Translations under genes and position numbers: made by a program
DNA from: a virus
Taxonomy: Duplodnaviria > Caudoviricetes
IMG/VR virus record: IMGVR_UViG_3300031974_003279
Coordinates: 1 to 58,025 of that record
Length of the DNA stretch: 58,025 nucleotides
Reading direction: 5' to 3' (one strand)
Shown: positions 29,268 through 56,489 of the stretch, in pieces
Layout: every line of letters starts with the position of its first letter
Position numbering within the stretch: the first letter of the stretch is position 1
Notes under the pieces: generated by a model
Seen by the model: only the letters and a program-made list of their open reading frames with translations
Told to the model about the DNA's origin: nothing
Databases searched by the model: none

Positions 29268-29293
29268 AAAAAAGCCCCACATAAGTGAGGCTT
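29268..29293 (-). terminator. Intrinsic terminator-like hairpin + U-tract
   Basis: + strand AAAAAA-GCCCCAC-ATAA-GTGAGGC-TT. Confidence 0.7.
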
Positions 29294-29327
29294 AGTTGCT
29301 GATTTATAGCTAACAAATATGATCACA

Positions 29328-30629
29328 TCAGCAAATGATCTGTAGGATTGTTTTACCAGGTTGAGTCTTCTTGGCACTCTTGGCATTGTATGCTTCCAAC
29401 TCAGAGTTGATATTGTACCCAGGGTAATTCTTTACATGTGCGTCCTGATGATCAAGGATCTGCACGAAGCGGCGTCCATCTTTTACAACGTAGGCATTTG
29501 CCTGCGCTCTACTAAAGAGACTTAGTGCTCTCTCATTGTACGTATTGGAACCGGACAGTGATCCAGCACGTGCCGCAAACCCGTGGGTATGAGATATATG
29601 AATGTGTCCGGCAATGATGTAGTCTATCGGGGTACCTTGGAGATGGAACCTACCAATAGTAGACTGAGTCTTGTGCTGGTTGTCTGTGATCTTGGCGATG
29701 TCGTGAGTAATCAACCAGTTCTGGTCATTTACTTTGACAACGACCTCCATCTGATCGATCGACTTAAAGTGAATACCGTCAATACCGGAGGCAGCAATGA
29801 TCTGCTTTACACCACCCATCACGATCAAATCATAGTTCTCTGAGGCAACCTCGTCTGAGAAGCCTAGCTCTTGACCGATGCGGGATTCATTACCAAGCAC
29901 GCTTACTATATCGATACTGAATCCATGGGTACGTATCTCTGTAAGCGCTTGCACAATGATGTGCTGCAGTAGCAGAGCTGCTTTGGATCTATTGGTAGCC
30001 TGGTTCAGCATTTCGTCCAGGCGCCTATCTGAATTCAAAAGGTCCCCAGTGAAAGCACAGAGAACCTTTGATACGCGCATGGTCTTGAACCAATTGATAC
30101 AGTCGTGTACATACTGTCGTAATCTACTCGACAAGACATTGAAGTCATACTTGTTGTGCGGTAGATTGATCAGCTCGTTGGCATGTATGTCCGTAAACTG
30201 CATGATACCTATCCCAGTATGATCCGGATCATCTTCTATGACTCCGAACTCAGGAAGGTTTTGAGCAAGCTTGGTACCGTAGTCTTCGTAGACTTCTATA
30301 AGAGCGCTTGAGAATTCACCAATGGCATTCTCTAAACGAGCGTGCTCACGAAATGTCTTGTTGGCTATCCGGTTTTGGTCCCGGGCTTTTTGCAGCTTGG
30401 TCTCGGACTTGACGATCTGCTCACGGTACTCTTTGTCTACCTGACGATCCTGAAGAACCATGCGCACGATCCGCTTAATGGACTCGTACGAAGCTTTGTC
30501 AAGCCAGTCCGGGTAATCGTCAATTAGCCTATCGGCAACCTCTACCATGGTCATAGTGAGAGGATCGTAGTGGTAATCGTCGATCTTCTCTCGTACGAAA
30601 CTGGTTATGGAGCCGCCGTGACTACCCAT
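29328..30629 (-). CDS. Calcineurin-like metallophosphoesterase with N-terminal helical/coiled-coil region
   Basis: Motifs FTDIH, TGDL, GNES, THD, GHIH. Confidence 0.75.
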   Translation of the reverse strand: MGSHGGSITSFVREKIDDYHYDPLTMTMVEVADRLIDDYPDWLDKASYESIKRIVRMVLQDRQVDKEYREQIVKSETKLQKARDQNRIANKTFREHARLENAIGEFSSALIEVYEDYGTKLAQNLPEFGVIEDDPDHTGIGIMQFTDIHANELINLPHNKYDFNVLSSRLRQYVHDCINWFKTMRVSKVLCAFTGDLLNSDRRLDEMLNQATNRSKAALLLQHIIVQALTEIRTHGFSIDIVSVLGNESRIGQELGFSDEVASENYDLIVMGGVKQIIAASGIDGIHFKSIDQMEVVVKVNDQNWLITHDIAKITDNQHKTQSTIGRFHLQGTPIDYIIAGHIHISHTHGFAARAGSLSGSNTYNERALSLFSRAQANAYVVKDGRRFVQILDHQDAHVKNYPGYNINSELEAYNAKSAKKTQPGKTILQIIC

Positions 30630-30802
30630 TAATTAGAGACTGGTTCTTTTCTTCTCCATTGAAATACAAGGCTCCATACCGCAATCTGAATACAGAACTC
30701 GTAAAGATCACCTTCTTCGTCTGGATGAGGTACAGCAGAAATGTCTACACCAACTCCAAAAATGCGGTAATCGTTATTGTCAATGTAAAATCTAAACAAC
30801 AT
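30629..30802 (-). CDS. Small hypothetical protein (57 aa; below the ORF-track cutoff)
   Basis: MLFRFYIDNNDYRIFGVGVDISAVPHPDEEGDLYEFCIQIAVWSLVFQWRRKEPVSN; fills the gap exactly, TAATG-coupled to the next gene. Confidence 0.65.
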   Translation of the reverse strand: MLFRFYIDNNDYRIFGVGVDISAVPHPDEEGDLYEFCIQIAVWSLVFQWRRKEPVSN

Positions 30803-30804
30803 AA

Positions 30805-31374
30805 CTACTTCATTATTAGGTTAAATACCCATAGTGCCATTACTACAAGTGATATAAACATAGTTAAAGTCAGCCAAGGAGGCAAACAATACCATGGTGA
30901 TCTTGTTACGTCGGACAATTGATTTTGTAGAGAATCTACCTCAGCTTTGTGGTAGTTTGTTACAGAGTCAAGCTTCAGTTGGAAGGTCTGATTCAGCTCT
31001 TTCTTGGACTCAAATACTCGTTCGTTGACCTGCTCTTGAGTAAAACCTTTTACCACAATGGTACCGTCTTGAACAGTGACTGCTACGCTTTTACTCTTGA
31101 GGTTTACGATCTCAGCATTCTTTGCCATAAGTACTGAGTCACACAATAGCTTGAGTGACAAACGGATCTCGTGCGTGTCTGCTTTTACAACGGTTCGCTC
31201 TACAAACACACTGTCTTCCTGGATAGAAACAATTGAGTCTTGCAGTTGCGTGATCAAAGTATTCTGCACAGAGTCTTGTGCTTCGTACTGTGATACAGTC
31301 GACTCAAACTTTTTCTTAGTTACGCAGGAGCTTACTGCCAGGTACGCCAGCAGCAATACAAAACGTCGTTTCAT
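30805..31374 (-). CDS. Putative unimolecular spanin (lipoprotein)
   Basis: N-terminal lipoprotein signal (MKRRFVLLLAYLAVSS-C) plus C-terminal transmembrane helix, directly downstream of holin and endolysin. Confidence 0.7.
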   Translation of the reverse strand: MKRRFVLLLAYLAVSSCVTKKKFESTVSQYEAQDSVQNTLITQLQDSIVSIQEDSVFVERTVVKADTHEIRLSLKLLCDSVLMAKNAEIVNLKSKSVAVTVQDGTIVVKGFTQEQVNERVFESKKELNQTFQLKLDSVTNYHKAEVDSLQNQLSDVTRSPWYCLPPWLTLTMFISLVVMALWVFNLIMK

Positions 31375-31649
31375 TAGGATACTTTCTTAGTGAACTTTTC
31401 AAATAGAACTTCAATAGTCTTCAAACCTCCGAACCCAATAAGGAATGCGGCACCATGGCCTGCAGAGTCAGGGAGTGATGCCCAGTCTAGAACCAATGGG
31501 GTCAAATAATTGGCTCCCATTGTACCACCCACTACGGATATGACTTGTTCTTTTAGACTTTTACCTTTTCGGGCTGTGATCAGTGATCCGAAAAAGCCGC
31601 TTATTACTAAGCCAATGTTTATACCGAATTGGGTGAGGTCGAACTTCAT
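31374..31649 (-). CDS. Putative holin
   Basis: About 91 aa with three hydrophobic segments and basic C-terminus; likely start MKFDL overlaps the amidase stop (ATGA). Confidence 0.7.
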   Translation of the reverse strand: MKFDLTQFGINIGLVISGFFGSLITARKGKSLKEQVISVVGGTMGANYLTPLVLDWASLPDSAGHGAAFLIGFGGLKTIEVLFEKFTKKVS

Positions 31650-32053
31650 AGCGTAAACTTGTCTGACACTTTGAAGCTTGGACAAGCTTTTGAGCTTACT
31701 TCATTATGTCCAATTAATTTTTCAATGGTTGGGTATGATTTCTTGAGTTCCAGAATCAAAGCTTGCATAGCAGCTTCTTGAGTTTCTGTAAGAGTATCCT
31801 TAGGATTTCCTTCGGAATCAGTACCTCCTATGTAGCAGATACCGATCGATTTCCGGTTGTAACCTTTAGCGTGTGCACCAATCTTTTCAATGGGTCTTCC
31901 AACGTTCATGGTACCATCCAGCGTAATAACAAAATGGTATCCTATGTCGCTCCAGCCCCTGGCTTTGTGCCACTTACGGATTTCTGAGACAGATACATCA
32001 CGTCCCTCCGGCGTTGCAGAGCAGTGAACAATGATCGTATCTACGGGTCTCAT
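31646..32053 (-). CDS. N-acetylmuramoyl-L-alanine amidase endolysin (T7 lysozyme/Amidase_2-like)
   Basis: IIVHCSAT, DIGYHF, GAHAKGYN, SIGICYIGG, GHNEVSSKACPSF zinc-amidase motifs. Confidence 0.93.
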   Translation of the reverse strand: MRPVDTIIVHCSATPEGRDVSVSEIRKWHKARGWSDIGYHFVITLDGTMNVGRPIEKIGAHAKGYNRKSIGICYIGGTDSEGNPKDTLTETQEAAMQALILELKKSYPTIEKLIGHNEVSSKACPSFKVSDKFTL

Positions 32054-32070
32054 TTTATCAAAAGGTTTAT

Positions 32071-32104
32071 CAAAAATACGACTATGTCACGTAGTCCATC
32101 TAAC
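32071..32104 (-). promoter_or_regulatory. Putative late promoter GTTAGA-N20-TATTTTTG for the lysis cassette
   Basis: - strand reads GTTAGA-TGGACTACGTGACATAGTCG-TATTTTTG, 17 nt before the amidase ATG and just after a terminator. Confidence 0.6.
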
Positions 32105-32116: not shown

Positions 32117-32140
32117 AAAAAAGCCCTGTTTCCAGGGCTT
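32117..32140 (-). terminator. Intrinsic terminator-like hairpin + U-tract
   Basis: AAAAAA-GCCCTG-TTTC-CAGGGC-TT after UDG. Confidence 0.8.
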
Positions 32141-32147
32141 TAGTGCA

Positions 32148-34910: not shown

Positions 34911-34935
34911 AAAAAAAGCCCCAGTTAAGGGGCTT
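34911..34935 (-). terminator. Intrinsic terminator-like hairpin + U-tract
   Basis: AAAAAAA-GCCCC-AGTTAA-GGGGC-TT. Confidence 0.75.
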
Positions 34936-34943
34936 TAGTTCGA

Positions 34944-36410
34944 TCAGAGAATGCTCTTACGAGACAGTACTTTGTCTCGAATGTTGAGCATCAGCTCTTT
35001 GATGTCTGCTTTGTTGAGTACTTGGTTGAACTGATAGTTAACCAATTCCTCAGCGCTGGTATTCTTGACCAAGTCTTTGATGTAATCCTTGGTTACTTGA
35101 CAGTAATCCTTGGACTGCTCAGACTCAAGCGTCATGTTGGGGCTGATGATCGCACCCTCTTTGTCGCGCTTGACCAGGTCAAATGGCAGGTACTCACATA
35201 CACGCATCTTGTAACCGGTACCATACTCATAAGGCACAGCCACAATGTTCTGCGGGTTGATCAGACACATGATCTGCTTGTCGCCGAAGCCTTGGATACC
35301 GAATCGTTCGGAACCAACATGCAATCCGCGAGAGCAGGATACGTTTGGATCTGCATCACAGTCCTGACGAGGCATGCTTACAGGTGTACGCATACGGATC
35401 GTCATAGTGTGAGTATGTGCGTCAGTGAATACTTCATTCTCTGCAGGACGCATCTTTGCATTGGACAAAGTCTCGAGCACATCGAAGTACGTACCTTCAT
35501 ACTGATAGCGAACCTCTTTAGATAAGGTTCTAACATACTCACTAGATGCATAAGAGTCGTGAGGCCTGTCGCCTACCATTTTATTGTACAACTTCTTAGC
35601 ATACTTTCTAACATTGCCGTACGAATTATTGATAGGATAGACGGTCTTGTATCTCTTGTACCGCAGCTGGCTTACAGATGGTGCACGAGTCTTGGAGTTG
35701 TTGATATACAACTGCTCCATACCATTGTCAAGAATGACACGCCATACATGCATCTGATGCTCGAACAGACCGTGACCACGGAAGTTTTCTTTCAGATCAT
35801 ACATTTGATCAAGAGTCTCCTCGAAGTCAATAGTAGGTGCTTTGTCCTCTGATTCAGTATGCTTGTGCACAACTGAACGATATGCTACGAAGAAACCTTC
35901 GGGAGTCAAACTCAAGTTCAGATCCGTGATAAATCTGAAGGCACCCTCGCGTGCCTCAGGGTCTGGGTTCAGGATCAGCCAGCGCCAGAAATTAAATAGA
36001 GACTGCATGTCTTCGTCTGTTTGACTACGACGAATGATCTCACGAATGATGACCTCCGGCATGGATACATCGATGCCATCAAGGCATACACGACCTTCGA
36101 TCAGACTGATCTCTGGATACCTGGCTTGGATTTGCTTGATCTTGGCCAGCAATGCAGACATCTCAACACTCTTCGAAATACCCTCTGACATCTCTACTGG
36201 AGAAATGTAAGTGGTGATCGTGTTTCTAAATATGTCTACATGATCCGGATCTATAGGATCAAGCGCATCAAACCATTGGACGAAATCATCGACTTCGTCC
36301 TGGTTATTCATTGTCAAACGATGCATTGGTTCAGAGGAGAAAGCTACTGTGATCTTGTCTCCTACAACGGTCAGCTTTTTACGCTGTTTTACTTCTGTCT
36401 TAATCGACAT
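34944..36410 (-). CDS. rIIB: rIIB-like protein
   Basis: NFWRWLILNP, TPEGFFVAYR, CSRGLHVG, INPQNIVAVP, KMRVCEY; adjacent to rIIA. Confidence 0.85.
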   Translation of the reverse strand: MSIKTEVKQRKKLTVVGDKITVAFSSEPMHRLTMNNQDEVDDFVQWFDALDPIDPDHVDIFRNTITTYISPVEMSEGISKSVEMSALLAKIKQIQARYPEISLIEGRVCLDGIDVSMPEVIIREIIRRSQTDEDMQSLFNFWRWLILNPDPEAREGAFRFITDLNLSLTPEGFFVAYRSVVHKHTESEDKAPTIDFEETLDQMYDLKENFRGHGLFEHQMHVWRVILDNGMEQLYINNSKTRAPSVSQLRYKRYKTVYPINNSYGNVRKYAKKLYNKMVGDRPHDSYASSEYVRTLSKEVRYQYEGTYFDVLETLSNAKMRPAENEVFTDAHTHTMTIRMRTPVSMPRQDCDADPNVSCSRGLHVGSERFGIQGFGDKQIMCLINPQNIVAVPYEYGTGYKMRVCEYLPFDLVKRDKEGAIISPNMTLESEQSKDYCQVTKDYIKDLVKNTSAEELVNYQFNQVLNKADIKELMLNIRDKVLSRKSIL

Positions 36411-38994
36411 CTTCTTGTTTGTTTAGGTTGTTAATTAAAGTTTCGATAGATTGTCCATCGCGGACATCTGTTCTAGACGTAAAGAACTCTTTACGGTACG
36501 GGCCATTGATGTACTTATATGGCTTTAGCTTAAGCATGATCAGGTCAAGATCATTCTTATTAAAGTGCATCTTGCGATCGTTATTAAAGATAAGACTTCC
36601 TGCAAGAAGTTCAAGCTGTTTTAACTTGAATATCAGATCAATATCGTGCTTGATCGCAGACTCTTCTGCAAGCCATTCAGGATGATACTTCTTGATACAC
36701 TCGACAATTATTTCACGTTTATTACTAAGGGTCTCAAATGGCTTTGAGTATCCATACTTTTTTGCGAAATAATTTTGGAAGATGTCATCCAAAGACTTTG
36801 ATGACTTAGTAACGATCAAATCATCTATATACTCTACAGAAGTTTGATCATTTATCAGTTGTCGAACAGCTAATACTTCCTTGTAAATAGGATGCTCTAT
36901 TACATAGCTGTAATAGTAGTACGTCAAGTATGCATTCTTGAATCGTTCTACTAACCGACCATTTGTACCGATAAGGTCATCGTAAGTCATGAAGCCTTCG
37001 CCAGGTGCAGCCTTATAGTTTTTGGTATCAACTTGTATCATAACCAAGTTATAAAAACCTAAGCTTTGCAGCGTACCTTCAAAAGCCCAACTATTTATAG
37101 GAACGTCTGCTTTTCTGTAGAACATTGCTATAGCACCTGTCTCTTCGCAAGCTTCTCTGAGTTTCCTGCATGAGAACCTGGTTTTCTTAGAGTCATATGT
37201 ACTTCTTGAATTGAATACAGACTGGATACGACCACTCGGTATTACAGTATTTCTAGGCTTAACATGACCCTGAAACACACCTTCGAGGAATGTATCCTTA
37301 TCAAATTTTACATCGTTGAGGTCAGGGTATTTGATCCCATAGTCATGAGCCAACAATGATGCAATATTGTAAGACGTAAGGAAAGCTCTTTTACTGAGTT
37401 TTATAGCAGTAAGAATGATCTCTTTAGCGTCTTCACACTCGACATCAAAAGACTTTTGCCACACGTCCATAAAGATGTGCTCAGGCATTACCATAGTAGC
37501 ATGATACCTATGCAAAGGATCTTTCCGAAGAGTGCTCTTACGTATCTCATCATCTGTTGAGATTTCAAGAAACATCTTCTGACTTTCTCTAAAGCGAAAA
37601 GTAGTAGTTGTGTGATAAGAATACCTGTGTTCTTTGTATGATGCCAGATTTACTAAGGTATCATTGACAGGGAAAGTCTGATTTCCTGACTCAAGTATCT
37701 GTGATACCTGACCAGTGTCTTTACTGCTGTACTGAATAAAGATACCTTTGCGATATCGGAAAGCATCTATCAAAGCTTCAGCAAAGTAAAGGTATCTGGA
37801 CTGCAGGTCTCTCAGACTTGTAGACCAATCAGAGCCTTCTATGCCAACCTGATTTCTTACACCAAATCCTGAGAGTGATGACTCAAATGGTTCATGCTTT
37901 TCAGTAATGAAATCAAGATCACCGACATAATACTTTACAAAAGTCATATCATCTATCTTCATGTTACCATCGATCTTAGACTCCGGCAATGACTTAAGCA
38001 GATACCTTTCAAAGTCCATATCAGTTTGAAGCCTGTATGGCTTCTGATCGGTTTCTCCGACAACTTTGTGGAACTCTTTCATACACTCATCAATACGATC
38101 GCGAATGATCTTCTTAGTACTGATGTTGTACTTAACACTCTCGCGAGTCAAAGTCACAGGTAACTCTCCGATCTTGAACTTAGCAGCAAGACTGAAATTA
38201 CCATTGAATGCAATTGGAGCCATGTCGATAGCTTTCCAATCGATAGGATATCGCACCTCACCAATGACCAGCTCGAGATCTGATCTCTTTGTAATGGCGT
38301 CATCGTCACGACGAAAGATGAAGTTCTTACCCTCAACGATCTTAAAGTCATTAAGCCGACCAAGGTTCATGACCTGCGAGTTATCTACCACATACAGATG
38401 TGAGAAATACTTTAGCTGGTTGTGAATACCTTTCTCGAACAGCACCAAGTCGTCGATAGATGCAATGAACATCTTGACTGTGGTACCATTGCGCTCTGAT
38501 GTAGGCATCGGATCATCCAACGGGTCGAGTACAGGAAAGCCGTCGTCACCCTTGCGGATCATGTACTGATACTCTATACCATCGTACCGAGTGGTGAGAT
38601 AGTACTCATCGACATAAGACAGCGGTGACTTTGAACCGATACCGAAGTAACCGACCAGGTCATTGGTGTCTGTCTTAGTTGACTTGAGATACTTTGTGTA
38701 CACATTCTTGATACGGTCAGGGCTCATACCTATGCCGTTGTCAACAAAGCTTACAGAGTAGCCTTCTGAAGGAGTGTAGTCGAACATAACCATGATGGGT
38801 TCTTCGACACCAGCCTCCTTGTGAGCATCCCAACTATTGGTAGCTGTCTCGCGGATGATCGATTCGATCGGGTTTGAGTACGGTGACTGCAACAAGTCGA
38901 ACAACTTGTGCTGATCAGTCTGACTGATCTCCATACGTGTTGACTCATCATCACCGATCGTTACGATGTTGAGGTCTGTTTTTATCTCTTTCAT
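36400..38994 (-). CDS. rIIA: rIIA-like protein with GHKL/HATPase N-terminal domain
   Basis: YSNPIESIIRE..NSWDAH, DNGIGMS, STKT, GYFGIGSKSPLSY; likely start MKEIK at 38994 (ATGA overlap with upstream gene). Confidence 0.85.
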   Translation of the reverse strand: MKEIKTDLNIVTIGDDESTRMEISQTDQHKLFDLLQSPYSNPIESIIRETATNSWDAHKEAGVEEPIMVMFDYTPSEGYSVSFVDNGIGMSPDRIKNVYTKYLKSTKTDTNDLVGYFGIGSKSPLSYVDEYYLTTRYDGIEYQYMIRKGDDGFPVLDPLDDPMPTSERNGTTVKMFIASIDDLVLFEKGIHNQLKYFSHLYVVDNSQVMNLGRLNDFKIVEGKNFIFRRDDDAITKRSDLELVIGEVRYPIDWKAIDMAPIAFNGNFSLAAKFKIGELPVTLTRESVKYNISTKKIIRDRIDECMKEFHKVVGETDQKPYRLQTDMDFERYLLKSLPESKIDGNMKIDDMTFVKYYVGDLDFITEKHEPFESSLSGFGVRNQVGIEGSDWSTSLRDLQSRYLYFAEALIDAFRYRKGIFIQYSSKDTGQVSQILESGNQTFPVNDTLVNLASYKEHRYSYHTTTTFRFRESQKMFLEISTDDEIRKSTLRKDPLHRYHATMVMPEHIFMDVWQKSFDVECEDAKEIILTAIKLSKRAFLTSYNIASLLAHDYGIKYPDLNDVKFDKDTFLEGVFQGHVKPRNTVIPSGRIQSVFNSRSTYDSKKTRFSCRKLREACEETGAIAMFYRKADVPINSWAFEGTLQSLGFYNLVMIQVDTKNYKAAPGEGFMTYDDLIGTNGRLVERFKNAYLTYYYYSYVIEHPIYKEVLAVRQLINDQTSVEYIDDLIVTKSSKSLDDIFQNYFAKKYGYSKPFETLSNKREIIVECIKKYHPEWLAEESAIKHDIDLIFKLKQLELLAGSLIFNNDRKMHFNKNDLDLIMLKLKPYKYINGPYRKEFFTSRTDVRDGQSIETLINNLNKQEDVD

Positions 38995-46069: not shown

Positions 46070-46089
46070 AGTTAAAGTGTTTATGATTC

Positions 46090-49199: not shown

Positions 49200-49215
49200 A
49201 GAATATTTTTTAGTT

Positions 49216-49240
49216 AAAAAAGCCCCGCGTGAGCAGGGCT
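49216..49240 (-). terminator. Intrinsic terminator-like hairpin + U-tract
   Basis: AAAAAA-GCCCCGC-GTGA-GCAGGGC-T. Confidence 0.7.
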
Positions 49241-49246
49241 GTCGGT

Positions 49247-49930
49247 TTACATTTCCAAGACCATCATGATCGATTCTGCAATCTTACGAATCTCATCTTT
49301 ATGTTCCTGAGAATCTTTGTCCTTGTCGTTCAAGTACAAAACATCGTAAGGTATTGAATACACTTCGTGTTCTGTCCTGTGACTGTATGGTTCTAGGTGT
49401 ATACCAGGTCGTTCGAGACGAACAGTATACTCTCTACCACCAATTGACTTGATCCATTTTGTGATATGCGTATGTTCTTCTACAAGTCTGCAGTCTGGCA
49501 GGAACACGATGCAATCTCTTGCGTACGGTGCTGCAAAAGCTTCAGTGATGCGACCGATCGTAAGGAACCAAGGATTGAACTGATCATGTACTGCGTCACT
49601 CAAATAGATAAGCAATTCACGCACAGTTGGATTCAATCTGTCCTTGAACATGTACGTCTTCTTTACAAGATCGTTGACATGCGGGACGTAGTTCTTGGCA
49701 GGAGAGTTCTTGACTTCCTGATCTTCGAGATCCAAACGTTGAACAGGTTGGAAGAACTCCATAAAGAGATTCTTCAGCCATTGAGAATACCTTACGGTTC
49801 TCATTACTGTGTTTGGATGACCTTCTTCGCCACGCTCTTTGTAGATTTCTTCGAGCTGTTCAGCGATTGATCTTGCGATCACGTCTTTACCGGTGCCTTT
49901 CAGGCCCGATATGTTTACTACCATTTTCAT
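49247..49930 (-). CDS. Deoxynucleoside monophosphate kinase-like
   Basis: SGLKGTGKD P-loop, TVRELL, PDCR..E, SH.TE motifs. Confidence 0.8.
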   Translation of the reverse strand: MKMVVNISGLKGTGKDVIARSIAEQLEEIYKERGEEGHPNTVMRTVRYSQWLKNLFMEFFQPVQRLDLEDQEVKNSPAKNYVPHVNDLVKKTYMFKDRLNPTVRELLIYLSDAVHDQFNPWFLTIGRITEAFAAPYARDCIVFLPDCRLVEEHTHITKWIKSIGGREYTVRLERPGIHLEPYSHRTEHEVYSIPYDVLYLNDKDKDSQEHKDEIRKIAESIMMVLEM

Positions 49931-49956
49931 AGGCGGTTGTTTGATTTTAGAGTTTA

Positions 49957-50112
49957 CTAGTTAAAGTCTGATATGATATCCACTGCTGCAGCCATCTGAC
50001 AACTCACTGAACAGTAAGCTGATATTATCTGTGGATGGATAGGATCACCACAGTAATGGCATTTTCTTGGATCGTCGGGCGTTTTGCCCAAATCAGATTG
50101 CATGTTTTGCAT
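49957..50112 (-). CDS. Small zinc-finger protein (51 aa; below the ORF-track cutoff)
   Basis: MQNMQSDLGKTPDDPRKCHYCGDPIHPQIISAYCSVSCQMAAAVDIISDFN; CxxC..YCSxxC treble-clef pattern. Confidence 0.7.
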   Translation of the reverse strand: MQNMQSDLGKTPDDPRKCHYCGDPIHPQIISAYCSVSCQMAAAVDIISDFN

Positions 50113-50133
50113 GACTTTGGTTTTTGATTAGAC

Positions 50134-50159
50134 AAAAAAACCCCCAATGAAGGGGGTTT
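50134..50159 (-). terminator. Intrinsic terminator-like hairpin + U-tract
   Basis: AAAAAAA-CCCCC-AATGAA-GGGGG-TTT. Confidence 0.8.
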
Positions 50160-50281
50160 AGGCCGTTTTCTACTATTGAGATATGAAACACTGTTTGACC
50201 ACAGAGGGTTGGAGTCTCGCGCATAGCAGACTTTGTTATTTCCCACAACCGACGGCAAACCGGCAAAGGGTCAATACCAAC

Positions 50282-50821
50282 CTACATAATCTTACCGTGC
50301 TTTTTACTGCGGGTTGTATTTCGTAAAGCAATCAATGCTACCAGCACATCGAAACCATGCTCATCACCATAGTCTTCCTTGGTTGCTTTGGCTTGAAGCC
50401 ATCCGACTGTGTCAAGCACGCGAATGATAACATCACCGAGCTCCCATAAGATACCATCCTTGATGACTTTGATCTTTTCGTGAACTATGGGATTCTCCAA
50501 AGTCTCAGTAATAGGTATACCTACGTTCTGATCTTTCTTGATTGCATCTTCGATGTCAGATATCATAGATAGTTCTGCTCGAATCCTGTACTCAATAGAT
50601 TCTCCGGGTGTACTGAACTCAAGTACCTCTATGTTGCGAAGAGCTTCAAGGCATTCTGATACTTCGCTGGTCATCAGTGCCAGATTGGTTGCAAGACGTT
50701 CGGGTGTAAGTTCATCACGAACACCATGATAGAAGCCATTGGCTTTTGATGTAGCGTAACAAACTTTGGCACTCATGCCATCTTCCAAAATGTCTTTTCG
50801 GATTTGATCTTTAGATATCAT
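50282..50821 (-). CDS. MazG-like nucleotide pyrophosphohydrolase
   Basis: GFY, LALMTSEVSECLEALR ... ELGDVIIRVLD, R...HGK, with an insertion between the two halves. Confidence 0.75.
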   Translation of the reverse strand: MISKDQIRKDILEDGMSAKVCYATSKANGFYHGVRDELTPERLATNLALMTSEVSECLEALRNIEVLEFSTPGESIEYRIRAELSMISDIEDAIKKDQNVGIPITETLENPIVHEKIKVIKDGILWELGDVIIRVLDTVGWLQAKATKEDYGDEHGFDVLVALIALRNTTRSKKHGKIM

Positions 50822-50840
50822 AATGATATTGGTTTAGTTC

Positions 50841-50866
50841 AAAAAAACCCCACATGTAGTGGGGTT
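50841..50866 (-). terminator. Intrinsic terminator-like hairpin + U-tract
   Basis: AAAAAAA-CCCCAC-ATGTA-GTGGGG-TT. Confidence 0.8.
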
Positions 50867-50872
50867 ATGAGA

Positions 50873-51217
50873 TCACTCTTCGATCTCTACTTCAGTGCCA
50901 AACCACTCATCGTGACGGTCTTCAGCAATTTCGAGTTCGATTCTAGCAAGTCGAAGATCAACTTGTGCTCTGTGAATCTTCTCGATCATCTCAGTTGCAT
51001 TCTCGTTTGAGCTTGCAACAGTCAGGTCAAGAGTATTCGTTGGTCCGAAGTCGAGCATCTGCTCGATGATCAGCTCTTTGTCACTGACCTCTGCACGACA
51101 GCGTGTGAGGTGTGCTTCAGATGCATTGCGGACTGCGCTACCAAACCGGCTTGCGCGATCTGCTCTTACTTCGGTGTTTGTGCGGACGATGCCGGCTACG
51201 AAAGGACTTACCTTCAT
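50873..51217 (-). CDS. Hypothetical coiled-coil protein
   Basis: 114-aa helical ORF with A-rich leader. Confidence 0.65.
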   Translation of the reverse strand: MKVSPFVAGIVRTNTEVRADRASRFGSAVRNASEAHLTRCRAEVSDKELIIEQMLDFGPTNTLDLTVASSNENATEMIEKIHRAQVDLRLARIELEIAEDRHDEWFGTEVEIEE

Positions 51218-51299
51218 GGGATATTTGTTTAAGGTTGTTCGGTTAATTTACTGGTGTGCTTAACGAATCTGTAAGGTTACAGATTACGTGGTAGGAAGA

Positions 51300-51330
51300 T
51301 AAAGATACACCTTTTTATCTGTTAATCAAA
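51300..51330 (-). promoter_or_regulatory. Putative host sigma-type promoter TTTG-N19-TATCTTTA
   Basis: Matches the Bacteroidota -33/-7 consensus (TTTG-N19-21-TAnnTTTG) with one mismatch, in an intergenic gap. Confidence 0.6.
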
Positions 51331-51412
51331 GAGTTATGCGACTTTAGTAGTGTGTTTGGACCTCAACTGGTCAATGTAAGTCGGCTTAACTGATTAGGCG
51401 AATTGGTGTTTC

Positions 51413-51595
51413 TTACAGAGTTTGTAATTGCTTACTTGATCGTATCATATTCTGCATACGCTCAAGCTTTGTAATTTTCTGTTGGATCCGAATAACGGTC
51501 GGGTGAGAATTACAGAGCTTTCTCTTGGCTACAGACAATCTGTTGTAGCAGTTCTGAATTGATACTTGAGTTCTGCGCAAACATCTCTCTTGCAT
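51413..51595 (-). CDS. Small basic coiled-coil protein
   Basis: 60 aa; typical leader after a terminator hairpin. Confidence 0.55.
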   Translation of the reverse strand: MQERCLRRTQVSIQNCYNRLSVAKRKLCNSHPTVIRIQQKITKLERMQNMIRSSKQLQTL

Positions 51596-51621
51596 GACTT
51601 AAGGTTTTAAATGATTAGACT

Positions 51622-51650
51622 AAAAAAGAACCCTCATTCATTTGAGGGTC
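51622..51650 (-). terminator. Intrinsic terminator-like hairpin + U-tract
   Basis: AAAAAAGA-ACCCTCA-TTCATT-TGAGGGT. Confidence 0.7.
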
Positions 51651-51891
51651 CTGGAGGGAAACCAAAGTCTTCAAGTTTGTACCTGATTCTGTAGTCATTC
51701 CAAGCGTCTCCAACTGGATACAGTCTGAAGAAGTCTTCCAAGGACAGCTTAGCGTACTTGTACTTTTCTTCAAGTGATTTGTTGTACTCTTTCTCAACGT
51801 CATGCCATACATAGCAGGGCATGCCATTGTCTTTGAGCTTTACAACATATCCTATCTTATGAAGATCCAGCTGAGATTCGTCGTCTGTCAT
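51634..51891 (-). CDS. Hypothetical protein
   Basis: 85-aa ORF ending inside the hairpin. Confidence 0.55.
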   Translation of the reverse strand: MTDDESQLDLHKIGYVVKLKDNGMPCYVWHDVEKEYNKSLEEKYKYAKLSLEDFFRLYPVGDAWNDYRIRYKLEDFGFPPGPSNE

Positions 51892-52054
51892 CTTTGACCT
51901 GTTGTAAAAGGTTCAGCTTGAACTTAGAAACTATCTCTGTGTAACGAGATATCTCACCATCCGCCATCACCTTGAGGTTAGCTTCTTCTTTGATGAGTTC
52001 TTCCTTGGTCAACGTAGTTAGCCAAGTCTTGTACTCTTCGCCGATTATATCCAT
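51857..52054 (-). CDS. Hypothetical protein
   Basis: 65-aa ORF with TCTAACATG leader. Confidence 0.55.
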   Translation of the reverse strand: MDIIGEEYKTWLTTLTKEELIKEEANLKVMADGEISRYTEIVSKFKLNLLQQVKDDRRRISAGSS

Positions 52055-52063
52055 GTTAGAATC

Positions 52064-52369
52064 TTATAATCCATAGAGGTAACGATGAGGATGTTCATCT
52101 GATTCGATAAACTCCTCATAGTACTCTTCATCTGCTTTAATCTTGGCTTCACGAAACTTAGCTTCGATGTTACCAGGCTTGAAAGCATCTTTTTCTAAGA
52201 TAGGATATTCTCTCAACTTGATGATCTCCTCGACACACTCCCTGAGTTTGCTTTTAGGAATGGTTTTCAAGAACATTCGTACGATGCATTCCAAGTGGAA
52301 GTCATCGAGATCGTTTACTGGAATGCGTTCACCATCACGCGTTTTCCAAAGCAGTTGTGTTGTTTCCAT
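52064..52369 (-). CDS. Hypothetical phage protein (WKTRDG..I...DD.HL..I motif)
   Basis: Likely start METTQ; motif typical of small phage proteins. Confidence 0.6.
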   Translation of the reverse strand: METTQLLWKTRDGERIPVNDLDDFHLECIVRMFLKTIPKSKLRECVEEIIKLREYPILEKDAFKPGNIEAKFREAKIKADEEYYEEFIESDEHPHRYLYGL

Positions 52370-52464
52370 AGGCTTGATGTTTATTTCCGTCTTTAAGGCT
52401 TGTTTGGTTCGATAGTGATGCACTTATGCATCATCTCTATTTAAGATTTTACCCTATTGCTTAA

Positions 52465-52719
52465 TTAAGGTGCCTTCTTGTTAAAGATTGCTGACTTGAT
52501 CTCGTCATGTGTCATGTTCCGGTTGGATATGACTACAAGCTTACCACCATGTTTGCTATCACGTATCCCTCTGATGCGAAATTTGTGATTCTTACAGTCT
52601 GTCTGCAGTGCACCACCTTTGAAAGGCACTGCCCAGCCGCCAAGTATGTTCAACTTCGTCTCGTACAAGAAAGAGTGTATGTCTTTCTTTGGCGATATAC
52701 GCAAATAATAAACTCCCAT
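52465..52719 (-). CDS. Hypothetical protein
   Basis: Likely start MGVYY, 19 nt after a terminator hairpin. Confidence 0.55.
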   Translation of the reverse strand: MGVYYLRISPKKDIHSFLYETKLNILGGWAVPFKGGALQTDCKNHKFRIRGIRDSKHGGKLVVISNRNMTHDEIKSAIFNKKAP

Positions 52720-52738
52720 TTGATTGGTTTTATGGTTC

Positions 52739-52763
52739 AAAAAAAGCCCTAATTAAAGGGCTT
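52739..52763 (-). terminator. Intrinsic terminator-like hairpin + U-tract
   Basis: AAAAAAA-GCCCT-AATTAA-AGGGC-TT. Confidence 0.8.
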
Positions 52764-52788
52764 CTTCATGACATTAACCGCTCGTTGT

Positions 52789-53052
52789 CTAATCCTTGCG
52801 GTCAATATTATTGCGTACTACATAATCGTAGACTTGCAGATAACTTTTGTTTCTGCATTTCTCGATTGCTTCGTACAGATCTGAGTTACGAACCTTGGCT
52901 TTGAACCTGTAGGTTCCTGTCTCTACTCTGATGATTAGCTTGAGATCAAACAGACATGTTACCATCAAGCTGTTGTATGGTACATTGTAATGCTTGAACG
53001 TGTCTCTGCTGGTAGCGTAACGCTTCAGCTTTATGAAGGTCTTATTGCTCAT
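52789..53052 (-). CDS. Hypothetical basic protein, possible winged helix
   Basis: 87 aa; LIIRVETGTYRF wing-like motif; overlaps the XRE gene stop. Confidence 0.55.
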   Translation of the reverse strand: MSNKTFIKLKRYATSRDTFKHYNVPYNSLMVTCLFDLKLIIRVETGTYRFKAKVRNSDLYEAIEKCRNKSYLQVYDYVVRNNIDRKD

Positions 53053-53308
53053 CTCTCAAGGTAGTTTTAGGACGCTTCTTACGTAAGATGAATTCATAAC
53101 CAAGTGCTTGAAAAATTCGAAACATGCTTGGAGTCCATATGCTGTGAGTGTAGCGCTCCCAGTCACCGATCGTAGATGCAGCTACTCCGGACATTTCACC
53201 AAGTTTTTTCTGAGTGAGTCCCTTGAGGCATCTAGCGGTACGCATCACATCAGCGATTTGTTCCGCATCTGTGATCCGTTTTTCATCGAGGTTGAATAGA
53301 TCATTCAT
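53042..53308 (-). CDS. XRE-family helix-turn-helix regulator
   Basis: ARCLKGLTQKKLGEMSGVAASTIGDWER...IFQALG; likely start MNDLF. Confidence 0.85.
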   Translation of the reverse strand: MNDLFNLDEKRITDAEQIADVMRTARCLKGLTQKKLGEMSGVAASTIGDWERYTHSIWTPSMFRIFQALGYEFILRKKRPKTTLRDEQ

Positions 53309-53326
53309 AGGTTTAAATTTTAGTTC

Positions 53327-53358
53327 AAAAAAGGCCCCGAGTGTCATGTCTCAGGGCC
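53327..53358 (-). terminator. Intrinsic terminator-like hairpin + U-tract
   Basis: AAAAAA-GGCCCCGAG-TGTCATGT-CTCAGGGCC. Confidence 0.7.
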
Positions 53359-53398
53359 AGGGTGTAAACAGTAAAACCTATCTAAAACCGCTGTCTAC

Positions 53399-53419
53399 AA
53401 AAAAAGCCCCGAAGGGCTT
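53399..53419 (-). terminator. Intrinsic terminator-like hairpin + U-tract
   Basis: AAAAAAA-GCCC-CGAA-GGGC-TT (UUCG loop). Confidence 0.8.
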
Positions 53420-53422
53420 GTA

Positions 53423-53659
53423 TCACTTGAAGAAGTGAAGTAGTGCGATACCGATGGCAAACATCAGATACGTGATCATGTACGGAAAGCTTTTCAAGAA
53501 GTAATGAGTAGCTTCATGTAAGCTTCTTTTAGTCCTTGAAACTCCTCGTGCATAGTAATCAAAGACTGCAACCTGATGCAGTATACGAATACCGCTCATG
53601 ATGATCAGCATCAAGCCGATGTACTGCAGGATTGTTTTGTGTTCGAAGTGCTCTAACAT
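53423..53659 (-). CDS. Small two-TM membrane protein
   Basis: Two hydrophobic helices in 78 aa. Confidence 0.6.
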   Translation of the reverse strand: MLEHFEHKTILQYIGLMLIIMSGIRILHQVAVFDYYARGVSRTKRSLHEATHYFLKSFPYMITYLMFAIGIALLHFFK

Positions 53660-53668
53660 GTCGAAGAA

Positions 53669-54001
53669 TTAATCAATGATTATTTTCATCACGTCAACCG
53701 AAGCTTCTTCACATACGTCATGCTTTGACAATGTTAGAACTATTTTAGTCAAAAGATCTCTTCGCAACACTTTCTTAGATACTAATGTACCTATTGCAAA
53801 TGATGCGAAAGCAACTTTACGCTCAAATTGACTTGGCTCAATTTCAACACCATGTGTTTCTAATTGAACCATGTTGATCATTTTAAGCATTGCTTCTGCA
53901 ATACCGTCTTCATCATCAAGAGCGGTTTTTACAGAACGTTGCAGGTTATTAACCCACTCGTCTTGAAGACCTAGGACTTCTGAAATTGATACGTTTTCCA
54001 T
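53669..54001 (-). CDS. Hypothetical protein
   Basis: 110-aa ORF with typical leader. Confidence 0.6.
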   Translation of the reverse strand: MENVSISEVLGLQDEWVNNLQRSVKTALDDEDGIAEAMLKMINMVQLETHGVEIEPSQFERKVAFASFAIGTLVSKKVLRRDLLTKIVLTLSKHDVCEEASVDVMKIIID

Positions 54002-54027
54002 AACTGTTTAATTAAGATTGGTTATAC

Positions 54028-54052
54028 AAAAAAACCCCAATTGCTTGGGGTT
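54028..54052 (-). terminator. Intrinsic terminator-like hairpin + U-tract
   Basis: AAAAAAA-CCCCAA-TTGC-TTGGGG-TT. Confidence 0.8.
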
Positions 54053-54057
54053 GTGGT

Positions 54058-54945
54058 TCACTCAGGGTAGATGTTTGAAAGAGTCAGTCGAAGGCAATCT
54101 AAGTTTGGATAAGATGCCAGAAACTTCGAAGCATGCAAGAAGCTGTGGTTTACACTGTGTGCTTCACTGATCGGATACTTCTTTGAGTCTCTGCTGATCA
54201 ATGTATAACCGGGACCTCTTGAGTTTTCAGTTACAAAATAGTGAAACTTGCTTGGTACGATCTCTTGCCATGGACCATCCAATGGAAGGAAGTCACGCAT
54301 GCATGCAACCGAAGGATATCTGTTATCGAAAGTAATACCATCGGTCAACCATTGGTCTTTAGCTTTTCTAATTCCCAATGCAATGTGCATGAATGGTATC
54401 ACCCAGTCTTGAGTCACTTTGAATACAGCATCATCGAAATCCATTCTGATACTGTTCCAAGAACGTATCTGTGCATTCAGTGTAGGAACACCATACATCA
54501 TGTCTCTTGGTGACTTGTCTTTTGTAAGACCGATGTCAACCTTTGACACATAGCTACAGATGTGTGTCTGCAAATACTGCACTGCTTCCAACATTGAGGA
54601 ATACAATCCATATCTTGGACTGTGCTTGTCTTCCATCCATATCGTTAGCTGCTCAATTGCATAGTTTGTAATGAGCATGCAGGTGGCAGGAACGTCTATA
54701 CTCTGATGATGATCAAAGTTCATGTAGCTTCTGTCATGTTGGTTACCAATGTCAAGAACAAGAACCTCTTTAGATTTGAGCTCAATCGGGGTTACCTTGG
54801 CAACTCTCTTTACAGGTAATGGTGGGAATCCCTTAGCATCTTCCAAAAGAGACATGCGCAGTTGATTGACAATTGCTACTGAGAGGACGTCATCTGCATG
54901 ATATCTTCCCTTGTGAGTTACTATGTACTCGATGTCTTTAAACAT
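54058..54945 (-). CDS. MYG1-family (DHH-like) metal-dependent hydrolase/exonuclease
   Basis: THKGRYHADDV, LDIG, FDHHQ, FLHASKF; likely start MFKDIE. Confidence 0.8.
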   Translation of the reverse strand: MFKDIEYIVTHKGRYHADDVLSVAIVNQLRMSLLEDAKGFPPLPVKRVAKVTPIELKSKEVLVLDIGNQHDRSYMNFDHHQSIDVPATCMLITNYAIEQLTIWMEDKHSPRYGLYSSMLEAVQYLQTHICSYVSKVDIGLTKDKSPRDMMYGVPTLNAQIRSWNSIRMDFDDAVFKVTQDWVIPFMHIALGIRKAKDQWLTDGITFDNRYPSVACMRDFLPLDGPWQEIVPSKFHYFVTENSRGPGYTLISRDSKKYPISEAHSVNHSFLHASKFLASYPNLDCLRLTLSNIYPE

Positions 54946-54964
54946 GTTGAATAGGTTTTGATTC

Positions 54965-54990
54965 AAAAAATAACCCCACCGAAGTGGGGC
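54965..54990 (-). terminator. Intrinsic terminator-like hairpin + U-tract
   Basis: AAAAAATAA-CCCCAC-CGAA-GTGGGG (UUCG loop). Confidence 0.75.
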
Positions 54991-54995
54991 ATACA

Positions 54996-55217
54996 TCAGA
55001 GTTCTAAATCCAATTGTTTTGATGGTTCAACTACCTCAATGAGGTTTAACACGTGGCTCATTAGATGACACTTGTAGACAAGAGTGTATCCGTAGTTTGG
55101 ATCGGATTTATCCACTACACGGCATGTTATCTTGTACTGATTATTCTCATCAACTTTCGTTTGGCCAATGAACTCAAGACGTTTTTGATTACACCTTTCA
55201 AATTGCGATTGTTCCAT
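54996..55217 (-). CDS. Small protein ending in a clamp-binding-like motif (QLDLEL)
   Basis: 73-aa ORF flanked by two terminator hairpins. Confidence 0.6.
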   Translation of the reverse strand: MEQSQFERCNQKRLEFIGQTKVDENNQYKITCRVVDKSDPNYGYTLVYKCHLMSHVLNLIEVVEPSKQLDLEL

Positions 55218-55237
55218 GTTAGATAGGGTTTAGGTAC

Positions 55238-55278
55238 AAAAAAACCCCCTACTAACTGCAATAGTTAGATAGGAGGTT
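55238..55278 (-). terminator. Long intrinsic terminator-like hairpin + U-tract
   Basis: AAAAAAA-CCCCCTACTAACT-GCAAT-AGTTAGATAGGAGG-TT. Confidence 0.75.
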
Positions 55279-55372
55279 CGGGTTGACACACACACCAACA
55301 AATAGTGTAACGTCTATACCACTCCGGTATAGGTATAGTATGGGCTTTTAGAGTGTTTTGATTACGCGAGAT

Positions 55373-55430
55373 TACTGACTAAAGCGTAAAACGACCCAGT
55401 ATATACTGACTAGAAGCGAAACAACTGAGT
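55373..55430. repeat. Imperfect tandem direct repeat (two copies, about 28 bp)
   Basis: TACTGACTAAAGCGTAAAACGACCCAGT / TACTGACTAGAAGCGAAACAACTGAGT, joined by palindrome CAGTATATACTG. Confidence 0.7.
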
Positions 55431-55436
55431 GAGCGG

Positions 55437-55467
55437 CTAAGTTAGTAGTCGTTTGTTATAAAGTCAA
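55437..55467 (-). promoter_or_regulatory. Putative host-type promoter TTG-N20-TAACTTAG
   Basis: One mismatch to the Bacteroidota -7 box with suitable spacing, in a 360-bp intergenic region. Confidence 0.45.
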
Positions 55468-55542
55468 GTGTTTACGTAAACTTTTTCTACCCAAACAACT
55501 TAAACTGCTCTGTAGATGCATGTTACGCCTCTGGCGTCGAGC

Positions 55543-55569
55543 AAAAAAAACCCCGTGTGTACGGGGTTT
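55543..55569 (-). terminator. Intrinsic terminator-like hairpin + U-tract
   Basis: AAAAAAAA-CCCCGT-GTGT-ACGGGG-TTT. Confidence 0.85.
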
Positions 55570-55576
55570 AGGGGTG

Positions 55577-56401
55577 TTACGGCTGCAGTAGGTTGCCCAT
55601 AGCAGGCATTGGCATTGACCCAGATTGTACCTGAGGTGTTGCCGTTTGCTGCGCAGCTGGAGCTACACCAAGCCTGTTACGGTTTGTCAGTTGCTGACGT
55701 ACTCCGCGACCACGACGAGGCTCACTCTCAGCTGCTACACCTGCGCTGCTATTCTGCCTGGCTTCGATGCCTGACATGGTGTACTCGTCACCGTACTCAG
55801 CGAATGGTGCCCAACTGACGAGTGGGACTTTTTGCTGAAGGGTGTCGAATGACAGAGAGTTGTTGATGTACTTGTTCAACTTGTCTTCTGTCAGAGGGCC
55901 TTCGCCGTCCATCCACACACCGTTGTTATCATCATAGTAGGTGCGGAAGTGCTCCTGAATCTCAGCCTGAATGACCTCGGGCTTGCGCTCGATTTGCACA
56001 AACTTTACGGCATACAAGTCATAACCATTGATGTGGTGGTCAGCTTGAACTGGCCACTTACACATTACACCCTTGATTGCAGGACTAATTTCCATGTAAT
56101 CCTTGGGTGCATCAGTGTCTGCTCCGAAAATACGGAACGAACCATCAGCCTCCATGACTCGAATCCCAAGCTGCGCACCTCGACTGCCTTTGTAGAAGAT
56201 GGGTTCAGGAAATGTTACAAGCATGTGCTGTATAAGCTCCTTACCACCAAAATCACTGTTGGCACGTCTGACTGCAATCTGATGATTGGTTGCAGCTAGC
56301 GCTTCTGGGTTGACCGTAAAGTATTTTGCAAGTGGGTCATTCACCTGCTGTTGGCTGTTCTTGTTAGCGGTAGCCTTACCGCTGTCGGCTTTTCCTGCCA
56401 T
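55577..56401 (-). CDS. Hypothetical early protein with disordered Arg/Gln-rich C-terminus
   Basis: Likely start MAGKAD at 56401; the listed upstream extension runs through a terminator. Confidence 0.65.
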   Translation of the reverse strand: MAGKADSGKATANKNSQQQVNDPLAKYFTVNPEALAATNHQIAVRRANSDFGGKELIQHMLVTFPEPIFYKGSRGAQLGIRVMEADGSFRIFGADTDAPKDYMEISPAIKGVMCKWPVQADHHINGYDLYAVKFVQIERKPEVIQAEIQEHFRTYYDDNNGVWMDGEGPLTEDKLNKYINNSLSFDTLQQKVPLVSWAPFAEYGDEYTMSGIEARQNSSAGVAAESEPRRGRGVRQQLTNRNRLGVAPAAQQTATPQVQSGSMPMPAMGNLLQP

Positions 56402-56457
56402 AGCTATATATTTATTTGTTAGCAACACTGTTACAAGATGGGCGGGGTAAAACTTTG

Positions 56458-56489
56458 AAAAAAAAAGCCCAACACTAATATGTTGGGCT
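56458..56489 (-). terminator. Intrinsic terminator-like hairpin + U-tract
   Basis: AAAAAAAAA-GCCCAACA-CTAATA-TGTTGGGC-T. Confidence 0.85.

Follow-up and report, generated by a model that had tools for sequence, protein, structure and literature searches.

The window analysed here is a 58,025-base contig of a tailed phage (Caudoviricetes; IMG/VR record IMGVR_UViG_3300031974_003279), part of a genome, in which two halves converge. The half read on the plus strand (1-28330) holds five very long open reading frames (ORFs) with four junctions, and that read on the minus strand (28415-58025) is a replication module of approximately 42 genes, taken to be early by analogy. Between 29268 and 56489 this module is punctuated by 18 hairpins, each followed by a run of U and all on the minus strand, which had been noticed in a reading of the letters without database searches (the sequence-only reading). 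All 18 were found at the positions claimed for them, and they are very probably terminator-type elements. They are listed below with the distance from the end of the U-run (T-run in the DNA) to the next ATG, together with the hairpin at the junction of the two halves.

Element 1, 56458-56489, minus strand: 10-pair hairpin and T9; ATG 56401 at 56 nucleotides (nt); -15.8 kcal/mol.
Element 2, 55543-55569, minus strand: 9-pair hairpin and T8, 7 nt past a stop codon; a 330-nt non-coding stretch comes next, with no nearby ATG; -13.2 kcal/mol.
Element 3, 55238-55279, minus strand: bulged 15-pair hairpin (5' end given as 55272-55279) and T7, closing the non-coding stretch; ATG 55217 at 20 nt; -19.7 kcal/mol.
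Element 4, 54965-54990, minus strand: 7-pair UUCG hairpin and interrupted run TTATTTTTT; ATG 54945 (revised start) at 19 nt.
Element 5, 54028-54052, minus strand: 8-pair hairpin and T7; ATG 54001 at 26 nt.
Element 6, 53399-53419, minus strand: 6-pair UUCG hairpin and T7, first of a tandem pair; next ATG at 51 nt, running into the hairpin of element 7.
Element 7, 53327-53358, minus strand: 9-pair hairpin (7 G-C) and T6, second of the tandem pair; ATG 53308 at 18 nt.
Element 8, 52739-52764, minus strand: hairpin and T7; ATG 52719 at 19 nt.
Element 9, 51622-51652, minus strand: 10-pair hairpin overlapping the upstream stop codon and T6; ATG 51595 at 26 nt.
Element 10, 50841-50866, minus strand: 8-pair hairpin and T7; ATG 50821 at 19 nt.
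Element 11, 50134-50159, minus strand: 8-pair hairpin and T7; ATG 50112 at 21 nt.
Element 12, 49216-49240, minus strand: 8-pair hairpin and T6; ATG 49199 of PolB at 16 nt.
Element 13, 46090-46114, minus strand: 8-pair UUCG hairpin and T7; ATG 46069 at 20 nt.
Element 14, 44653-44681, minus strand: hairpin (5' end given as 44679-44681) overlapping the stop codon of the helicase gene and T6; ATG 44631 at 21 nt.
Element 15, 40459-40484, minus strand: 8-pair hairpin and T6; ATG 40443 of the primase at 15 nt.
Element 16, 34911-34936, minus strand: 8-pair hairpin and T7 after the RIIB-like gene; ATG 34889 at 21 nt.
Element 17, 32117-32141, minus strand: 9-pair GNRA-type hairpin and T6; ATG 32053 of the amidase gene at 63 nt.
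Element 18, 29268-29293, minus strand: 9-pair hairpin and T6; ATG 29248 of the last gene of the module at 19 nt.
Junction hairpin, 28388-28407, no strand assigned: 7 G-C pairs within the 84-nt convergent junction; no U-run on the minus strand, UUUGCGUUU on the plus strand.

When folded alone, every element yields a hairpin (6-15 pairs, 4-8-nt loop) whose minimum free energy lies between -9.4 and -19.7 kcal/mol (18/18), and in all 18 a run of T6-T9 lies directly 3' of the stem, with a single interrupted case (element 4). The stable UUCG loop is found in three elements and a GNRA-type loop in two, and the two members of the tandem pair are 45 nt apart with no gene between them. The base that follows the U-run is a purine in 17 of the 18 elements and a G in 14 (P = 4e-5), and a G stands ten bases before the last U in 16/18. 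The pause consensus of multisubunit RNA polymerases is G-10/Y-1/G+1, and both the G after the U-run and that at -10 fit it. The sequence traits of an intrinsic terminator, namely a stem-loop, a 3' U-run and a sense orientation at gene ends, are all found, and the UUCG and GNRA loops, the tandem pair and the U-run point to termination. Directly behind the tandem hairpins 6 and 7 lies the gene of a small HTH_3 (Xre-type) protein (53042-53308, minus strand).

Chance is excluded as the origin of the elements. A strict scan of the sense strand of the minus-strand module returned 15 of them against 0.43 +/- 0.67 (maximum 3) in 30 dinucleotide shuffles, and looser terminator scans gave 22 sites against 13.7 +/- 3.8 and 34 against 14.3 +/- 4.0. 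A repeat finder that is blind to structure recovered the elements as the five largest direct-repeat families of the module, with 9, 7, 5, 5 and 4 copies of 23-36 nt. With a scan anchored on T-runs, which misses element 4 (54990, interrupted run) and element 3 (55272, bulged 15-pair stem), 16 sense sites and one antisense site were counted in the minus-strand module, against no sense and three antisense sites in the plus-strand module. None had been noticed in the latter by the sequence-only reading, which is borne out for its sense strand; the contrast is real but weak, because five long ORFs with four junctions offer few places for a terminator. Sense-strand runs of at least six T number 18 in the minus-strand module, every one of them within an element, and each of the nine remaining T-runs is precisely five long. 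That genes avoid T-runs was considered as further evidence and dropped, since homopolymers are depleted in general (six runs of at least six A against 14.1 expected).

Elements 15 (40451-40486) and 11 (50126-50161) are 86% identical over 36 nt, including the eight letters GTCTAATC after the U-run, which are also found in element 9. The likeness of elements 11 and 15 suggests either the copying of a unit composed of terminator and leader or a shared constraint.

The 18 elements occupy 28 kb, 12 of them being packed into 7.3 kb. Relative to the end of an upstream open frame of 40 codons or more, sixteen begin within the interval from -19 to +34 nt; for elements 7 (53358) and 15 (40484) this frame is probably spurious, the real stop codon in the latter case lying 20 nt upstream of the hairpin. 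Elements 3 (55272) and 11 (50159) close non-coding stretches. For 14/18 elements the next ATG lies 15-26 nt from the T-run, and the multiset of gaps is identical to that reported in the sequence-only reading. Two of these gaps call for revised gene starts: 54945 instead of 54996, which is supported by a Pfam MYG1 match that begins at residue 8 of the shorter protein, and 53308 instead of 53347. The other four elements have no gene close by, being followed by gaps of 56 and 63 nt, by the next hairpin, and by the 330-nt non-coding stretch. That essential genes stand behind such elements, as had been pointed out, is also correct, PolB and the primase starting 16 and 15 nt after their U-runs.

The gap of approximately 20 nt is no special distance, its composition being that of any start region of this phage. 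The spacers between hairpin and ATG (280 nt) contain A at a frequency of 0.44 and G at 0.06, and the same values are found in positions -20 to -1 of 12 genes without a hairpin. CTAA, TAAAC and AAACC are enriched after the U-runs and, by eye, are also present before most of these 12 genes; therefore, they are part of the start region and not of the element. The CTAA flanks were also considered as target-site duplications of a mobile element and rejected, for they precede only 6/18 elements and are explained by A-tracts and by the make-up of start regions. A Shine-Dalgarno-like motif precedes one of 42 starts. Starts that lack it are typical of Bacteroidota, and its scarcity fits a host from this group.

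The 330-nt non-coding stretch (55218-55547, minus strand), bracketed by elements 2 and 3 and without a match in Rfam, is a candidate small RNA that would end at element 3. It is reminiscent of the abundant early intergenic RNAs that are reported for phage phi14:2 in the accessible part of the preprint on its transcription (bioRxiv 10.1101/2020.03.07.982082). Further long gaps are present at 56933-57064 and 51218-51412. The scan for tRNA genes found none in the window, and the Rfam scan gave 0 matches; contigs of two sequencing runs (X2 and X3) depart from the window at 57088, 57750 and 57918 into letters that resemble tRNA T-arms, so tRNA genes may be present in close variants, near where the module begins.

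Two relatives allow conservation to be evaluated. The closer one (L001) matches the window over 17 kb at 92-95% DNA identity, with an average divergence of 5.2%, and keeps 11/11 elements of the shared stretch. Differences are found at 1/180 stem positions (a one-base length change at the T-run), 0/51 T-run positions, 4/59 loop positions and 1/165 positions of the first 15 nt of the spacers, against 5/165 in the 15 nt upstream. Stems differ from loops by Fisher's test (P = 0.014), and at most one change in 180 stem positions has P = 7e-4 at the divergence given above. In the more distant relative (L002), whose PolB is 54% identical and whose G+C content is 30% against 44% in the window, five elements with ATG gaps of 17-29 nt occur in 14 kb. 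Four of the five stand at junctions that match window elements 11, 13, 14 and 15, with different stem sequences, element 12 has no counterpart there, and one element of this relative has none in the window. Structure and place are thus kept while the sequence drifts, as judged from two relatives.

The high density of elements is a property of this lineage, and their layout is common. The same scan gives 5.4 elements per 10 kb in the minus-strand module (range, 5.4-6.1), 6.5 in L001 and 3.6 in L002. The value for the module exceeds by a factor of 3-10 that of 12 other replication stretches of crAss-like phages, which have 0-1.8 (phi14:2, 0.5; Rudgehvirus, 1.0; cr52_1, 0), and the difference remains when the demand for G+C is relaxed. 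Where distant relatives possess an element of this kind, an ATG often follows it at 10-32 nt as well. A literature search that joined crAss and terminator terms found no work on terminators in Crassvirales.

The genes that place the window among phages are the following.

47283-49199, minus strand: PolB.
44667-45917, minus strand: helicase.
42635-43774, minus strand: DnaB-like protein.
39412-40443, minus strand: primase.
34944-39057, minus strand: RIIA- and RIIB-like genes.
28415-29248, minus strand: spore-photoproduct-lyase-like radical SAM gene.
54058-54945, minus strand: MYG1-like exonuclease.
1541-4360, plus strand: Crassvirus cargo protein 1 domain with SLT transglycosylase (PF25725, E 8.7e-14, 52.2 bits with a cut-off of 27).
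7200-23387, plus strand: giant ORF of 5395 residues, probable virion RNA polymerase by weak homology and synteny, with DFDYD at residue 4113.

The minus-strand module also encodes exonucleases, and the RIIA-like, RIIB-like, spore-photoproduct-lyase-like and MYG1-like genes all lie within what appears as a crAss-like replication module. When matches of PolB to named phages are ranked by the product of cover and identity, the top ones are mostly Crassvirales, at 26.6-29.5% identity, with non-Crassvirales phages at 27-28% also among the 25 matches listed. No close relatives were found in the phage collection when 10 kb were compared by megablast; PolB as a single query gave no match in IMG/VR, and an alignment of PolB as query retrieved only relatives at 34% identity or less. 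The DFDYD block of the giant ORF aligns with the catalytic DFDID block of phi14:2 gp66, weakly (BLASTP E 0.002, with a second colinear piece), and a profile-to-sequence alignment in hhalign gives E 0.0016 and a probability of 16%. Searches with PHROGs, Pfam, PDB sequences and tblastn against phages gave nothing significant for this ORF. It converges on the minus-strand module, and a replication module that runs into giant polymerase genes is also the layout of phi14:2, Rudgehvirus jaberico and cr52_1. From these similarities the phage is accepted as a distant crAss-like phage with a probable virion polymerase, in agreement with the sequence-only reading; the capsid, portal and terminase genes are outside the 58-kb contig. 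At 5395 residues the giant ORF exceeds the annotated crAss polymerase genes (2180 residues in phi14:2, 12.3 kb in Rudgehvirus, 13.4 kb in cr52_1), and five homologues of 4569-5032 residues were found in metagenomes. The hairpin at 28388-28407 may end this polymerase and cargo module rather than the replication module.

The similarity with phi14:2 is informative for the polymerase that may read the elements. According to the accessible part of the preprint, the whole replication module of this phage belongs to the early class and is made under rifampicin by the virion polymerase gp66, which works on single-stranded or denatured DNA, and the early 5' ends have no common motif (bioRxiv 10.1101/2020.03.07.982082). 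The window shares with phi14:2 a replication module that converges on giant polymerase genes, the lack of a host-type promoter motif before early genes, and extended non-coding stretches close to where the module begins. It differs in the number of terminator-like elements, of which phi14:2 has 2-4 in 41 kb (0.5-1.0 per 10 kb), one of them 31 nt ahead of its PolB gene. By this analogy, the minus-strand module is probably read by an injected virion polymerase.

Host-type promoters were searched for in the module. The consensus of the Bacteroidota -7 box is TAnnTTTG, paired with a TTG at -33. On the sense strand of the module this box occurs twice against 7.6 +/- 2.6 in shuffles, and TTG-N17-21-TAnnTTTG does not occur. 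Sites resembling those of sigma-70 number 23 and 26 against 37 +/- 6.5 in shuffles, none of them at the elements, and no k-mer or motif is common to the stretches of 80 nt that precede the hairpins (lowest uncorrected p, 0.002). The elements themselves are the only motif shared upstream of the genes behind them. The T-run with the following G was considered as a -7 box and judged unlikely, the A at position 2 being missing and no -33 TTG preceding the hairpins. The sequence-only reading, which had seen no place for a host promoter in the short gaps, was therefore correct in its result. Its argument that there is no room for one is not sufficient alone, because a promoter can straddle a stem-loop, as in the PeSL elements of T4-like phages, which are described in the available text of two papers as units of approximately 100 bp with a strong sigma-70-type promoter overlapping the stem-loop (PMC2839356; PMC4122927). 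With no recognisable host-type promoter in the spacers, the genes behind the hairpins would be reached by read-through, by antitermination or by an unfamiliar mode of initiation. No antiterminator of the N or Q type and no put or nut RNA was recognised by Pfam (30 module proteins), PHROGs (10) or Rfam (0), most small proteins being without a family.

The longer gaps of 56 and 63 nt are plausible spots for a new promoter. The only intergenic TAnnTTTG of the minus strand (TATTTTTG, 32071-32078) lies in the 63-nt gap between element 17 and the Amidase_2 gene (31646-32053, minus strand), a lysis gene within the module that has the replication strand, which may be a separate late unit read by the host polymerase.

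What the sequence shows is the anatomy of the elements, their strand bias, excess over chance and conservation, and the lack of host-type promoter motifs; termination, its leakiness and the polymerase involved are inferred. With moderate confidence, the elements are read as terminators that leak and that stabilise 3' ends, whichever polymerase transcribes the module. They would split the replication module into approximately 17 units of 1-6 genes. At each element part of the polymerases would stop and the remainder would continue into the next gene, so that transcripts would share their 5' end and differ in where they stop, a hairpin protecting every 3' end, with graded expression along the module and stabilised mRNAs as the result. 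The approximately 20 nt after the U-run is the A-rich, G-poor start region of the next gene, devoid of a Shine-Dalgarno motif, which the compactness of the genome brings close to the terminator. This mechanism would need nothing new and has a precedent in the Pseudomonas phage LUZ7, in which more than 60% of the mapped termination sites let transcripts continue, with stepwise read-through, according to the available text of that study (PMC9163698). Both phages have, on the sense strand, many G+C-rich hairpins per genome that stand at gene ends and carry a U-run, and downstream genes without a promoter of their own, and LUZ7 also injects a virion polymerase, although an unrelated one. The window differs in that its elements are denser, stand at a uniform 15-26 nt from the ATG and are known from sequence alone, and in that its likely polymerase is of the two-barrel crAss type. 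Several points weigh against leaky termination. The energies and U-runs look strong, not weak. At an efficiency of 50%, 18 elements in series would leave approximately 4e-6 of the transcripts at the far end, a loss for which internal starts or antitermination might have to compensate. The hairpin with which the module closes lacks a U-run on the minus strand, an odd ending if this polymerase took hairpins with a U-run as its signal to stop. Moreover, phi14:2 has only its 2-4 elements in the 41-kb early module, and the accessible part of the preprint is silent on how gp66 terminates (bioRxiv 10.1101/2020.03.07.982082). A search for sequencing runs gave one RNA run and two runs of unknown kind. 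The RNA run over 38026-58025 consists of short contigs at a depth of 2-3, possibly DNA, in which no transcript ends are shown and from which nothing was concluded.

The apparent strength of the elements and their match to the pause signature would agree with a lock on the host polymerase, in which efficient host terminators are ignored by the virion polymerase, or by a complex modified by a phage factor, and the module is expressed only while that polymerase is active. This possibility is unlikely, if worth keeping in mind. The lack of host-type promoters between the elements, the essential genes behind them, the module end without a U-run terminator on the minus strand and the rifampicin-resistant reading of the counterpart module by the virion polymerase of phi14:2, as far as the accessible part of that preprint goes, would all suit it. 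However, in a module without host promoters the host polymerase would rarely be present and there would be little to lock, no antiterminator was recognised in the searches described above, and other crAss-like phages, including phi14:2, manage without such a density of elements. Of this proposal of the sequence-only reading, the need for read-through or antitermination stood, unless an unfamiliar initiation operates, whereas a terminator-blind polymerase is not told from plain leaky terminators, a common feature of phages such as LUZ7. Hairpins with a U-run at which the polymerase starts, instead of stopping, had also been proposed. In this case the virion polymerase would begin at the hairpin, or stop in the U-run and restart at the next purine, yielding gene-sized mRNAs with leaders of approximately 20 nt. 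Such signals would account for the purine after the U-run (17/18, G in 14) and for the elements being the only motif common upstream of these genes, and a polymerase that uses single-stranded DNA without a known promoter motif, as described for phi14:2 in the accessible part of the preprint (bioRxiv 10.1101/2020.03.07.982082), could be served by them. The available excerpts of two papers describe the early promoters of N4 and LUZ7 as hairpins that lack a U-run, have a loop of 3 nt with a purine at its centre and are conserved in loop and stem bases, used by a T7-like polymerase (PMC4496689, PMC9163698), and in LUZ7 transcription starts at a G 13-15 nt from the hairpin (PMC9163698). In the window, too, short G+C-rich hairpins lie upstream of early genes, the injected polymerase would be of a kind that prefers single-stranded templates, and a G that might serve as start is found approximately 15 nt from the hairpin centre (14-17 nt in 14/18, by hand count). 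But this distance is set by the lengths of stem and U-run and simply follows from an 8-pair stem with U7; the U-run is invariant although a promoter needs none; the loops are of 4-8 nt, with variable loop and stem sequences and 0/18 loops of 3 nt; four elements have no nearby gene; and no T7-like single-subunit virion polymerase was recognised in the window, which is part of a genome, the candidate polymerase having a two-barrel DFDxD motif. Furthermore, phi14:2, whose early 5' ends share no motif in the accessible account, manages without such elements. Hairpin promoters of the N4 type were thus not upheld, and start or restart signals in general are very improbable. Their stop-restart form, with RNA released in the U-run of a hairpin-U7-G signal and a new start at the next purine on the still-open template, is to be regarded with even more doubt. 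The gene-end/gene-start junctions of mononegaviruses are the comparison for it. If true, one entry point would serve approximately 17 units without promoters, and the missing early motif of crAss-like phages, the need for single-stranded DNA, the G in 14/18 elements and the approximately 20-nt leaders would be explained.

Two further proposals explain fewer features. If the elements served in processing and stability only, long transcripts would be cut and the hairpins would guard the new 3' (or 5') ends without any termination. Stable hairpins exactly at gene ends, with conserved stems, are what this would require, but the invariant U6-9, the following G and the confinement of runs of at least six T to the elements are hallmarks of termination and are unneeded for protection; there is little to recommend this role. 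That the elements may be recombination linkers between gene cassettes, akin to PeSL, is an idea of the sequence-only reading that was examined by alignment with L001, from which the window differs by two gene-sized changes. Neither L001 nor a contig of run X2 contains the window gene at 53669-54001. The deletion begins 6 nt ahead of one ATG and ends 5 nt ahead of the following one; it shows 4 nt of microhomology, and its left end is in the spacer 20 nt after element 5. Conversely, approximately 545 bases that the window lacks are present in L001 (1363-1943) at the window junction 52443-52478, where no element stands. No breakpoint of either change is inside a hairpin, and one is in the spacer between a hairpin and an ATG; both ends of the deletion fall in start regions. 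In favour of linkers, no direct-repeat family of the module is larger than those of the elements, 86% of 36 nt are shared by elements 11 and 15, one recent breakpoint is in a spacer, and in L002 small unrelated genes lie directly behind matching hairpins. In the available text on PeSL, too, repeated intergenic stem-loops (terminators or attenuators) are found in regions of small genes, where they abut the start signals of the next gene. The window elements differ from PeSL in having no host-type promoter, in sharing 23-36 nt instead of approximately 100 bp, and in that the two recent indels are not inside elements. Linkers are accordingly highly improbable; the data hint at new genes settling behind terminators, and give no evidence of the hairpins as recombination sites.

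If the elements are merely leaky terminators, as favoured here, they represent an ordinary phage operon design at high density. Their wider interest is in how the virion RNA polymerase of crAss-like phages finds its starts and stops, given that no motif is reported before the early transcripts of phi14:2 in the accessible part of the preprint (bioRxiv 10.1101/2020.03.07.982082). The present lineage has an unusually regular early module, with 18 near-identical stop-like signals that mostly abut the next gene. These signals could show whether bacterial terminators are obeyed or ignored by a crAss-type polymerase, or followed by a restart, and whether the polymerase of a Bacteroidota host stops at them, and through their individual strengths they might provide a graded series of terminators for Bacteroidota genetics.

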